A stretch of DNA of 64,000 nucleotides from Minisyncoccota bacterium. GTDB lineage: Bacteria; Patescibacteriota; Minisyncoccia; Phycocordibacterales; SBAW01. Both the position numbers and the translations under genes were made by a program. The notes under the pieces are model-generated. The model saw nothing but the letters and a program-made list of their open reading frames with translations, ran no database searches and had not been told where the DNA came from. The DNA lies in assembly GCA_035546615.1 (NCBI GenBank), contig DASZWM010000006.1, positions 32,001 through 96,000 of the forward strand, given 5' to 3'. Shown piece by piece: positions 12,439 to 19,293 of this stretch. Positions within the stretch are counted from its first letter, which is position 1. Every line of letters begins with the position of its first letter.

Positions 12439-15400
12439 ATGCGTAATCAAAAATTCTTCTCGAGGTACCGCACCCCCCGCGTCGAGACGCCGAATCTTGT
12501 AGAGGCTCAGCTTGATTCCTATAAATGGATACTGGGCGAGGGCATCAAGGAGACCTTCAAGGAGTTCACTCCTATTAAGGACTACTCCGGCAAGAAGTTC
12601 GACCTCGAGTTCGTGAAGCTCGAGATAGGCGAGCCGAAGTTCGACGAGCACTACGCCAAGGCGCAGAAGATGACGCTCGACGTGCCCGTGCGCGCCATCG
12701 TGAAGCTCAAGAACAAGGTCGCCGGCACCGAGAAGGAGCAGGAGATCTTCCTGGCCGACATGCCGCTCATGACCGATCACGGCACCTTCGTGATAAACGG
12801 CGTGGAGCGCGTTATCGTGCCGCAGCTCGCGCGCTCATACGGCGTGTTCTTCACCGCGGACGAAGTGAAGGGCAAGCGCCATTTCGGCGCCAAGGTCATT
12901 CCGGCGCGCGGCGCATGGATAGAAGTCGAGGCCGGCTCCGATAACGACCTCTCGGTCCGCATCGACCGCAAGCGCAAGTTCCCGGTCACAAGCCTCCTTC
13001 GCGTGCTCGGCGCCCCGTATGACAGCGACCTCAAGTCGCTCTTCTCCGGCAACGCCAACGAGAAGCGCTGGATAGAGACCGCCCTTGAGACTGATACCGC
13101 CAAGACCCTCGAGGACTCATATATAGAGATACACAAGCGCCTGCGCGACGGCGACCTCGCTACTGCGGCGAACGCCCGCGAGTATATCGACTCCATTTTC
13201 AGCGAGGAGCGCTACGACCTCTCGCGCGTGGGCCGCTACCGCTTCAACCAGCGCTTCGCGAAGCCCCTCACCGAGACCGAGCTCACCCGCAAGACCCTTT
13301 CTCTGGACGATGTCGTCACCGTTATCAAGCACGTCATCGAGCTTGAGAACAATCCGGAGGCGATGGAGGACAATATCGACCACCTCGGTTCCCGCCGCGT
13401 GCGCTACGTGGGCGAAATGCTCCAGAGCCGCCTTCGCGTCGGCCTCACCCACATGAAGCGCAACATCCAGGACAGGATGTCGACCATCGACGCCGAGGCG
13501 ACGATGCCGGTCCAGTTCGTGAACCCGCGCCCGCTGCAGGCACGCATCAAGGAATTTTTCACAACCAACCAGCTCTCCCAGTTCATGCAGCAGGAGAACG
13601 CGCTCACCGAGCTTGAGCACCTCCGCACCCTTTCGGCACTCGGCCCGGGGGGTTTGACCCGCGAGCGCGCCGGCTTCGAGGTCCGCGACGTGCACCCGTC
13701 CCACTACGGCCGCCTCTGCCCGATACACACGCCTGAAGGCCCGAACATCGGCCTCATCCTTCGCCTTGCAAACTTCGCGCGCCTCAACGAGTTCGGCATG
13801 ATCGAGACGCCGTACGCGAAGGTCGTCAACGGCAAAGTAACGACCGAGATCAAATTCCTCAACGCGGCTGAAGAGGAGACCGAGCACATCGCGCACGCCG
13901 GCACCGAAGTGAACGCTGACGGCCAGATAAAGGAAGACGCGGTGGAGGTTCGCCTCCAGGGCGCCCCTACCCGCGTGCCCAAGAACGAGGTTACCTACAT
14001 CGACGTCGCTCCCGAGCAGCCGTTCTCCGTCGCTACCTCCATGATCCCGTTCCTCGAGCACGACGACGCCAACCGCGCGCTCATGGGTTCGAACATGCAG
14101 AAGCAGGCAACGCCCTGCATCGTGCCTGAGGCGCCGCTTGTCGGCACCGGCATCGAGGCCCGCGCCGCCAAGGACACCGGCCGCCTCCACCTCGCCAAGG
14201 AAGACGGCGTTGTTACCGCGGCCGACGGCAAGCGCGTGAAGGTCAAGAATCAGAAGGGCAAGGAGACCGAATACCCGCTCGTTAACTTCGTGCGCACCAA
14301 CGGCTTTACCGCCCTCCACCAGCGCCCCAGCGTTTCCGTAGGCGACAAGGTGAAGAAGGGCGACCTCCTCGCCGACACCTCGACCTCCGACCAGGGCCAG
14401 CTCGCGCTCGGCCAGAACTGCCTCGTGGCGTTCATGACCTGGTCGGGCGCCAACTACGAGGACGCCATCATCATTTCCGAGCGCATGGTCAAGAACAGCA
14501 AGTTCTCCTCCATCCACATCGAGGAGTTCGTCTGCAACGTGCGCGACACCAAGCTTGGCCCGGAGGAAACCACCCACGACATTCCCAACGTTTCCGAAAA
14601 CAAGCTCCGCAACCTCGACGAGGACGGCATCGTCCGCGTCGGCTCCGAGGTCCGCCCCGGCGACATCCTGGTCGGCAAGATAACCCCCAAGGGCGAGACC
14701 CAGCTCACGCCTGAAGAGCGCCTCCTTCGCTCCATCTTCGGCGACAAGGCCCGCGACGTGAAGGACTCAAGCCTTCGCATGGAGAACGGCAAGCGCGGCC
14801 GCATCATCGGCGTGAAGGTATTCTCGCGCGAGGCGGGCCACAACCTCGAGTCCGGCATCATCAAGCGCATCCATGTCGAGATAGCGCAGCTGCGCGCGGT
14901 ATCGGTAGGCGACAAGCTCGCCGGCCGCCACGGCAACAAGGGCGTTATTTCCCGCATCCTTCCCGAGGAGGACATGCCGTACATGGCGGACGGCCGCCCG
15001 GTTGACGTCATCCTCACTCCGCTCGGCGTGCCGTCCCGCATGAACCTTGGCCAGATCCTCGAGCTGCACCTCGGCCTTGCTGCCAACACTCTGGACTACC
15101 AGGCGATCTGCCCTCCGTTCGCAGGCGCAACCGAAGAGGAGATCCGCGCAGAGCTCAAAAAGGCCGGCTTCAACGAAAGCGGCAAGATGCCGCTCTACGA
15201 CGGCCGCACCGGCGAGAAGTTCGAGGCTGACATCGCGGTGGGCTATATGTACATCCTGAAGCTCCACCACATGGTGGCCGACAAGATCCACATGCGCTCC
15301 ATCGGCCCGTACAGCCTCATCACTCAGCAGCCGCTCGGCGGCAAGGCGCAGGGCGGAGGCCAGCGCTTCGGCGAGATGGAAGTGTGGGCGCTCCTGGGCT

Positions 15401-18400: not shown

Positions 18401-19293
18401 GCACCGTCGCCGCCCAGGCTATCGGCGAGCCGGGCACCCAGCTCACCATGAACATCAAGCACGCCGGCGGCGCGGCCTCGGCAGGCGGCGACGTGACCCA
18501 GGGTCTGCCTCGCGTCGAGGAGATCTTCGAGCGCCGCGCGCCCCGCAACCCGGCGGTCGTCGCATCGGTATCCGGCGAAGTCGTCGAGATACGCAGCGAC
18601 ACCAAGGAGAAGGTCCTCGTCGTTGTGCCGTCAATCGAGCACAAGGGCAAGGGCAAGAAAGAAACGGTTGAGTACTCGATGCACCCGCGCCGCATTCCGT
18701 TGGTGAAGGTCGGCGACCAGGTAGAGAAGGGCCAGCTCCTCACCGACGGCTCGGCAGAGCTCACCGAACTCTTCAAGTACGCGGGCAAGGAGCGCGCGCA
18801 GGAGTACATCATCTCCGAAGTGCTCAAGATCTACGAGCTCCAGGGCGCCAACATCTCGACCAAGCACCTGGAAGTTATCGTCCGCCAGATGTTCAACCGC
18901 GTGAAGGTCGTCGAAGGAGGCTCCTCAGAGTTCTCCAAGGGCGACATCACCAGCGAGCCGGATCTCATCGCGCTCAACGAACGCCTTGTCGCGGCGGGCG
19001 GGGAGAAGGCGACCTCGGAAGGCCTCATCATGGGCATTCTCGACGTCAGCCTCTCCCGCGCATCATTCCTCTCGGCCGCTTCGTTCCAGAACACCACTCG
19101 CATGCTCATCCGCGCCTCTTTGTACGGCAGCGTTGACCATCTTGAGGGCCTTAAGGAGAACGTCATCATCGGCCGCCTCATTCCTGCAGGCACCGGCTTC
19201 AAGGGCAGCCCCAAGGCAGCCATGGTAGCCAAGTATGGCCCCCAGCCGACCGAAATGCCGGTCGCGAAAGAGGAGAAGGAGGTCGTAGAGTAA
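12439..19293 (+). CDS. rpoBC: Fused RNA polymerase beta-beta' (RpoB-RpoC) in one continuous reading frame.
   Basis: The N-terminal ~1090 aa are RpoB, ending ...[13 protein letters not shown]...[20 protein letters not shown] short linker [18 protein letters not shown] joins it to RpoC, which begins at the conserved [33 protein letters not shown]. RpoC carries the Zn-finger CX2C...CX2[15 protein letters not shown] and the C-terminal clamp. There is no stop or restart between the two. The start could be GTG 12379 or ATG 12439. Confidence 0.9.

Follow-up and report, generated by a model that had tools for sequence, protein, structure and literature searches.

The genes for the two large subunits of RNA polymerase, rpoB (beta) and rpoC (beta'), form one uninterrupted reading frame in a 64,000-nucleotide (nt) stretch of DNA from a Minisyncoccota bacterium (NCBI assembly GCA_035546615.1, contig DASZWM010000006.1, positions 32,001 to 96,000; hereafter the window, with positions counted from its first letter). 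We consider it probable, at roughly 85%, that the two genes are truly fused in this member of the Paceibacteria (Patescibacteria; Candidate Phyla Radiation, CPR), and that their product acts as a tethered polymerase core expressed behind its own promoter and leader RNA. The close relatives of the organism include a metagenome-assembled genome (MAG) labelled Candidatus Adlerbacteria. The gene displays what marks a natural beta-beta' fusion, namely a single frame with no stop between the halves, kept in relatives. The literature searched contained no account of an rpoBC fusion from the CPR, the Parcubacteria or the Patescibacteria, which is not proof of absence, and on the sequence evidence this is an independent, undescribed case of a known kind of fusion. 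Coordinates of the features discussed below are collected in Table 1.

The fused gene and its junction

The longest frame at the locus is a + strand open reading frame (ORF) of 2325 amino acids (aa), found at 12316..19293 in the ORF listing of the window. An earlier note on this DNA had placed a fusion ORF of that length at 12439-19293; the fusion itself holds, with rpoB and rpoC in one frame and the full order of Pfam domains (Rpb2 domains 1, 2, 3, 45, 6 and 7, followed by Rpb1 domains 1-5), whereas the length does not, those coordinates comprising 2284 codons with zero internal stops and a predicted product of 2284 aa and 253 kDa. Judged from its homologues, ATG 12439 is the real start of the fused gene, because an identical NCBI protein (P0001) has 2284 aa and because all homologues start MR(N/E/Q)QK(F/Y)F. 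The alternative start at ATG 12316 was rejected, being unconserved and falling within hairpin P5 of the leader. The RpoB half matches its family over the full length and above the curated cut-offs, with 1452.5 bits against NCBIfam NF001616 (cut-off 896; residues 6-1047 on profile positions 5-1095 of 1096) and a score of 1432 against TIGR02013 (cut-off 801), and it carries all Rpb2 domains. The RpoC half scores 1466.2 bits against NCBIfam TIGR02386 (cut-off 963.5; residues 1070-2256 on profile positions 2-1144 of 1147), and its translation shows the zinc-binding CxCxnCxxC and catalytic NADFDGDQM motifs of that family.

Two further observations concern the same stretch. Upstream of the rpoBC start codon (...TTATTAAACCGCGCATG) there is no Shine-Dalgarno-like sequence (12341-12438), and the 95 nt from the leader U tract to the start codon are A/U-rich and weakly conserved; translation initiation of rpoBC may be independent of a Shine-Dalgarno sequence. 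Very long antisense ORFs, the longest of 1157 aa, lie opposite rpoBC (e.g., 14767..18240, - strand, 1157 aa), but those within 12316-19293 were rejected as genes, since such frames are expected opposite a G+C-rich (0.60-0.63) gene with strong codon bias.

Genes that are really separate might look fused if an error in sequencing or assembly, or the wrong joining of a MAG contig, had deleted the stop of rpoB or changed the frame; the window does come from a MAG, and the fused outlier P0089, represented by one assembly only, could be such a case. For the window gene the probability of this is negligible. Within a search space of 5.8 billion proteins, the same fusion was recovered in ~100 clusters (90% identity; 2236-2310 aa; 52-100% identity with the window protein), all of which carry the full domain set and which were drawn from four sources independent of one another (NCBI, JGI, ENA and Logan). 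The identical NCBI protein P0001 derives from a MAG named Candidatus Paceibacterota bacterium, and another fused protein, P0026, recurs in identical form on at least 24 contigs, many of them 0.2-1 Mb long. Every one of the 106 long homologues aligned is continuous across the junction, where differences in length are always whole codons, and all 18 additional DNA loci reaching the junction are open there. Among 18 distinct DNAs the T-P-G-A-E...D-F-D residues are constant, with one Glu-to-Asp exception at E, while T, P, G, A and E are each coded by 3-4 synonymous codons. Constant residues written with synonymous codons indicate that the junction is translated and under purifying selection, and the tree (below) and the junction motifs show the fusion to be fixed and under purifying selection in the group to which the window protein belongs (clade A, below). 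The comparison with related genomes that the earlier note had suggested as a check thus came out in favour of the fusion, and with this breadth of homologues an assembly or sequencing artefact is excluded.

Between 15540 and 15660 the DNA contains no stop, frame change, Shine-Dalgarno or start signal, in agreement with the earlier note. The same note had described the 18 junction residues as a linker, which comparison with split relatives (those with separate rpoB and rpoC) does not support: the first half, RGGEAVKGV, corresponds to the variable C-terminal tail of RpoB, and the second half, KKTPGAEVS (15607-15633), to a kept N-terminal extension of RpoC. In split Paceibacteria (17 loci), RpoB runs for 8-40 variable residues past a (V/I)(E/D)(L/F) motif, and RpoC has 6-20 residues ahead of a (D)F(D/E) motif, e.g., MSYTPKQKAGELNDFD in locus L074. 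The same (D)F(D/E) motif is present in the split RpoC N-terminus VSYKVSDFKAIK of L001 (Parcubacteria LiPW_39), where RpoB ends in ...VELIGVKEEGEERKDDTDSQKI and its stop is followed by a 100-nt spacer and the RpoC start VSYKVSDFKAIKLKLASPEE. The suggestion that RpoC lacks its usual first ~15 residues is accurate relative to Escherichia coli but not relative to the split relatives, nor to the solved Clostridioides and Mycobacterium beta' chains, which begin 2-3 residues ahead of the motif; the window RpoC portion matches PDB beta' chains from their residues 2-22. In a PDB sequence search with the junction, the 60 matches listed were ordinary separate beta or beta' chains, none of which spans both halves.

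The spacer between rpoB and rpoC in split relatives ranges from a 4-nt ATGA overlap to ~135 nt, which is so little that a small deletion or a stop-codon mutation would suffice for fusion. At its junction (RRNKDAIPQDFSAIAMRL) the fused P0089 agrees with the sequence that opens RpoC in its split sisters, MKKKD(I/V)IP(Q/A)DFEAVAMRL. From these comparisons we infer that the rpoB stop and a very short spacer alone were lost, the RpoB tail then running into the RpoC N-terminal extension with both native termini kept. Two split loci illustrate the range of arrangements. In a Candidatus Parcubacteria MAG (L082; JBEEJY010000019.1, 10135-10138) the rpoB stop and rpoC start overlap as ATGA, plausibly a pre-fusion-like state akin to the overlapping genes of Campylobacter. 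In a Candidatus Taylorbacteria MAG (L077; CAIOGI010000006.1, 7283-10004), ~2.7 kb with several ORFs lies between the split rpoB and rpoC, an unusual interruption given that other split spacers are usually under 135 nt.

The beta C-terminus and the beta' N-terminus are neighbours in the bacterial RNA polymerase. Because these ends are adjacent, the ~18-residue junction could act as a tether between them, with the two halves folding into an ordinary catalytic core, and a single translation event would set both 1:1 stoichiometry and assembly. By analogy, the tether would work as it does in the native Helicobacter RpoBC and in an engineered E. coli fusion.

Table 1 Features of the rpoBC locus, with positions counted from the first letter of the window
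Feature	Coordinates	Strand	Basis or remarks
rpsP	9688-10122		Upstream conserved order; Pfam, synteny
khpA	10236-10622		Upstream conserved order; Pfam, synteny
HD-domain gene	10661-11500		Between khpA and trmD; Pfam
trmD	11497..12153	+	Upstream neighbour; Pfam, synteny
Sigma-70-type promoter-like site, TTGACG-16 nt-TATACT	12172..12199	+	Scan: 10/12 matches, 1 site versus 0.5 expected
Conserved structured leader RNA, ~130 nt	12206..12340	+	DNA conservation, covariation
Leader 5' end, GAAACCAA	12207-12214	+	Begins 8 nt past the -10 hexamer
Leader G-rich segment, AGCGGGGC	12215-12222	+	
Leader hairpin P2	12233-12240 paired with 12250-12257	+	Invariant, 8 bp
Leader P3	12263-12279	+	Variable
Leader P4	12289-12304	+	Alternates GCTTC/GAAGC and GCTTGA/TCGAGC among relatives
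Leader P5, terminator-like hairpin	12307-12323	+	G+C-rich, covarying
Leader U tract, TTTTTCGTGTTTT	12328-12340	+	
RpoB (beta) portion	12439..15579	+	Residues 1-1047, end ...SLDVELM; Pfam Rpb2 domains, NF001616
Junction	15580..15633	+	Residues 1048-1065; sequence, 106-homologue alignment, termini of split relatives
RpoC (beta') portion	15634..19293	+	Residues 1066-2284, TAA stop 19291-19293; Pfam Rpb1 domains, TIGR02386
dnaG	19679-21292	+	Downstream neighbour; Pfam, synteny
rpoD	21400-22632	+	Downstream neighbour; Pfam, synteny

Distribution and probable repeated origin of the fusion

The fused Paceibacteria proteins include two clades that occupy different gene neighbourhoods. Members of clade A are 63-100% identical to the window protein, include the Candidatus Adlerbacteria MAG (L007) and have the gene order rpsP-khpA-(HD)-trmD-rpoBC-dnaG-rpoD, while members of clade B are 52-54% identical and have the order ftsW-mltG-rpoBC-rpsF-ssb-rpsR. 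Other Paceibacteria have split genes, including MAGs labelled Zambryskii-, Nomura- and Taylorbacteria. A neighbour-joining tree of RpoB plus RpoC (2176 columns, 100 bootstraps) recovered the clade A core and clade B with L016, each with a bootstrap of 100, and placed two other fused sequences among split ones: P0089 with L082 and L009 (bootstrap 100), and P0088 with L019 and L008 (bootstrap 99). Grouping of all fused sequences together received a bootstrap of 0. The simplest reading of these sequence relationships is that the fusion arose at least four separate times within the Paceibacteria.

A scan of GTDB with the junction peptide was dominated by the universal TKPETINY pattern; it returned at least two fused loci (L007 and L016) but does not allow species to be counted, and its loci served as the panel of split relatives and outgroups. 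When 1.84 billion representative proteins were scanned without a profile, ~30 fused beta-beta' clusters at 50% identity (P0121-P0250) were identified, ranging from 2000 to 3130 aa with junction lengths of 0-81 aa, the named members of which include Mycoplasma wenyonii WP_014849752.1 and a Deltaproteobacteria MAG. One MAG carries a label at odds with its sequence: the 2310-aa fused RpoBC of GCA_018333595.1 (P0100, locus L005), labelled 'Anaplasmataceae bacterium', groups with Paceibacteria clade B (bootstrap 100) and shares the clade B neighbourhood ftsW-mltG-rpoBC-rpsF-ssb-rpsR. The MAG, or the contig, has probably been given an incorrect taxonomic label.

Promoter, leader RNA and alternative explanations

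Upstream of the fused gene lies the promoter that the earlier note had proposed, a sigma-70-type promoter-like site, and both of its hexamers are conserved in position in ~45 related sequences, which bears out that proposal. The RNA that would start here has a conserved 5' end followed by a G-rich segment and a series of hairpins ending in a terminator-like stem and U tract (Table 1); in relatives a conserved tract, TTTTCGTGTTTT, follows P5, and most of them carry an additional variable hairpin, P1a, often with a GNRA loop and with many stem sequences, that the window lacks. Metagenome contigs scanned for an exact pattern yielded 48 leader loci, of which one (L130) is a chance match and 47 are real. 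At least 36 of the 48 hits have an RpoB N-terminus 160-360 nt downstream, most of the others lie near contig ends, and fused rpoBC follows the leader on the 47 contigs wherever enough downstream sequence is present. Among the loci examined, the leader is confined to the clade A core of the Paceibacteria, and an expanded version of it occurs at L089, the RpoBC of which (P0084) is 75% identical to the window protein.

From plain MAFFT alignments RNAalifold recovered P2 only, with the variable hairpins misaligned, which was solved by a hand-specified structure, a covariance model and re-alignment. The covariance model (R1) gave 52 hits, in the alignment of which 93.9% of cells are paired as proposed, compared with 85.5% in shuffles (none of 500 shuffles reached the observed value), and 14 of the 25 pairs show compensatory changes. 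Sliding the partners lowers pairing to 29-48%, and four helices of the leader covary. A search of Rfam 15, including Lacto-rpoB and Rhodo-rpoB, gave no relevant match in 12100-12500 at E <= 10 and none at gathering scores across the window.

In the window, the 3' strand of P5 (GCCCCCGCT) has complements in both AGCGGGGC and the loop of P2, which suggests terminator and anti-terminator alternatives: the G-rich upstream segments could compete for the C-rich 3' strand of the terminator. The leader is therefore put forward, from its sequence and predicted pairing, as a candidate transcription attenuator of rpoBC, the transcription of which would start at a sigma-70-type promoter belonging to the gene itself and so be uncoupled from rplKAJL. 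A separate observation concerns DnaA-box-like motifs (TGTGGATAA / TTATCCACA), which relatives carry on either side of the promoter and leader of rpoBC. L004 (~4500) and L089 (~2567) have perfect copies immediately before the -35 hexamer, and the window copies (12159-12167 and 12346-12354) have two mismatches. A role in replication origin or DnaA regulation was considered, and an origin was rejected, there being no cluster of DnaA boxes at up to one mismatch and no GC skew switch at this site; the motifs might be a regulator binding site.

The main rival to attenuation is that the element at 12206-12340 is a separate gene for a small RNA, with rpoBC transcribed by read-through or from another, unrecognised promoter. 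The element has a strong promoter of its own, folds compactly into several hairpins and ends like a terminator, and ~95 poorly conserved nt separate it from the ATG. Yet it is found only directly upstream of rpoBC and in the same direction, with the RpoB N-terminus close downstream in most of the hits counted above, a scan found no second promoter-like site between the element and the ATG, and structured rpoB leaders are known in other phyla (PMC5737381), so that we regard a small RNA gene as unlikely and favour an attenuating leader. We are more doubtful still of a bolder proposal in two parts, that repeated fusion in the Paceibacteria reflects selection for a self-assembling polymerase needing minimal assembly help rather than neutral stop loss, and that the leader is a new class of sensor (riboswitch or protein-binding RNA) gating core transcription via an RNA polymerase or nucleotide-type signal. 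A fused gene might also give separate proteins, if the junction were cleaved post-translationally or if translation could also begin at an internal codon, for instance ATG 15577-15579 (which encodes the M of ...VELM), and so give beta' as well. Most clade A sequences retain this methionine, residue 1047, and the conservation of K-T-P-G-A-E is striking if it does no more than link the two halves. However, position 1047 is L, Q or T in some members of the clade, no Shine-Dalgarno-like sequence precedes ATG 15577, the origin of KTPGAE in the RpoC N-terminus explains its conservation, and internal initiation cannot yield a free beta from an rpoB that has no stop. The Helicobacter fusion, moreover, reportedly stays a single chain, and we hold separate products in the window organism to be improbable. 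Similarly low odds attach to a single ancient Paceibacteria fusion followed by many later splits, in place of several independent fusions. The trmD-rpoB(C)-dnaG-rpoD neighbourhood is shared across the one group in which the fused lineages lie scattered, and a K-(T/N)-P-G-A-E motif is common to P0088 and the clade A core; but the tree would then demand at least six separate re-inventions of a stop, spacer and start codon, the RpoC N-terminal motifs seen at fused junctions are specific to a lineage and recur in the split sisters (P0089 versus L009 and L082), junction lengths and sequences differ among the fused groups, and the clade B neighbourhood is a different one.

Several points weigh against the combined reading of repeated fusion, a tethered core and a structured leader. 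The tree was built by neighbour-joining only, and P0089 is known from one assembly. That the 253-kDa chain is intact in the cell would be expected only by analogy, and an AlphaFold2 model of a 651-residue junction fragment (24-sequence alignment) was poor, with a mean predicted local distance difference test score (pLDDT) of 57.5, a predicted template modelling score (pTM) of 0.43 and a junction below 50, so that it neither confirms nor refutes the tether geometry. For the leader, pairs were counted after the alignment had been fitted to the covariance model, which favours the proposed structure; the single-sequence fold of the window leader is no better than shuffled (z = -0.16), although covariation bears out the structured leader that the earlier note had described; and a simple scan for terminators passed over the leader hairpin, the T run of which starts 4 nt past the P5 stem and so outside the rule. 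A truly fused and tethered core behind its own promoter and leader remains the reading that we prefer.

Gene neighbourhood and comparison with known fusions

As the earlier note had stated, rpoBC follows trmD, and rplK and rplL are absent from the window: a tblastn search found no L11 or L7/L12 there, while the same queries matched both upstream of rpoB in non-CPR loci as a positive control. Split relatives likewise lack L11 and L7/L12 upstream of rpoB, share the order rpsP-khpA-trmD-rpoB-rpoC-dnaG-rpoD and have an RpoB of ~1045-1105 aa (~1060-1105 aa for frames measured stop to stop, which are slight overestimates), compared with 1047 aa here. The proposal that fusion plus compact subunits points to a lineage-specific polymerase architecture is accordingly unsupported, since the split relatives are equally compact. 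Because they have all three traits, the compact subunits, the absence of rplKAJL and the gene order are, by this comparison, traits that predate the fusion and are independent of it. The position between khpA and trmD is held by rimM in many bacteria; in the window it is occupied by a YfbR-like 5'-deoxynucleotidase (the HD-domain gene), and in relatives by nothing or by other genes. Elsewhere in the window, at 60270-64000, a tRNA gene (60270-60341, +) abuts a large serine recombinase gene (60330-61883, -) with Resolvase, Recombinase and Zn_ribbon_recom domains, and a LOOT RNA (RF03000, 88 bits) is found at 63083-63199. The G+C content of this region is 0.44, compared with 0.58 for the whole window, and it looks like a mobile element integrated at the tRNA gene.

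Fusions of beta and beta' have hitherto been regarded as rare clade markers, in the Helicobacteraceae and Wolbachia, and one is now found fixed in a large uncultured CPR clade. With apparently at least four fusions within one class and ~30 divergent fused clusters overall, the rpoB-rpoC boundary emerges as a recurrent rather than a rare fusion point. Such fusions can upset marker-gene pipelines that expect separate RpoB and RpoC. To our knowledge the 2284-aa chain is among the shortest bacterial beta plus beta' combinations, and a compact single-chain core might serve well as a minimal RNA polymerase in expression and structural studies. The conserved leader RNA, previously uncatalogued, is a more novel by-product than the fusion itself; it represents a third, unrelated structured RNA upstream of rpoB and offers a handle on the regulation of polymerase synthesis in CPR bacteria. 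Lacto-rpoB and Rhodo-rpoB are leaders of this kind from other phyla (PMC5737381). As in the window, a conserved structured RNA, or a terminator, stands directly before rpoB and is presumed to tune RNA polymerase synthesis; unlike them, the window leader, with the fold P1a, P2, P3, P4 and then a terminator across its relatives, has no Rfam match.

The analogy that the earlier note drew to fusions in Helicobacter/Wolinella and Wolbachia agrees with the literature, in which the rpoB-rpoC fusion of Helicobacter and Wolinella (Zakharova et al. 1999, as cited in PMC1557499) and those of the Helicobacteraceae and Wolbachia (Lane & Darst 2010, as cited in PMC7483510) are described. The Paceibacteria fusion is of neither type by profile: the window protein scores 2102.8 bits against the Helicobacter-type model NF007172 / PRK09603 (equivalog cut-off 5372), in five separate stretches, and 1977.5 bits against the Wolbachia-type model NF011417 / PRK14844 (equivalog cut-off 4632), in six. 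NCBI names the fused proteins just "subunit beta'" because no model fits the Paceibacteria fusion type. As in the window, beta is followed in frame by beta' in one polypeptide in Helicobacter and Wolinella, where the fusion is treated, in the sources as cited, as a rare genetic change marking a clade, and where close relatives have adjacent or overlapping genes (Campylobacter, compared with the ATGA overlap of L082 in the present case). The Helicobacter RpoBC is longer, at ~2890 aa versus 2284 aa, belongs to a different phylum and represents a separate event with an unrelated junction. Wolbachia (Anaplasmataceae) resembles the window in having a single beta-beta' ORF, in a host-dependent bacterium with a reduced genome, but its RpoBC of ~2839 aa also stems from a separate event. 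The fusion of Mycoplasma wenyonii (2648 aa) has the same gene order as the window, and the ~30 other fused clusters, of which it is one, are 35-61% identical to the window protein and have unrelated junctions. A synthetic beta-beta' fusion is functional in E. coli (bioRxiv 10.1101/2021.11.05.467461). The engineered E. coli tether (Severinov et al.), although artificial and in an organism other than that of the window protein, demonstrates that a link between the beta C-terminus and the beta' N-terminus is compatible with polymerase assembly and activity.

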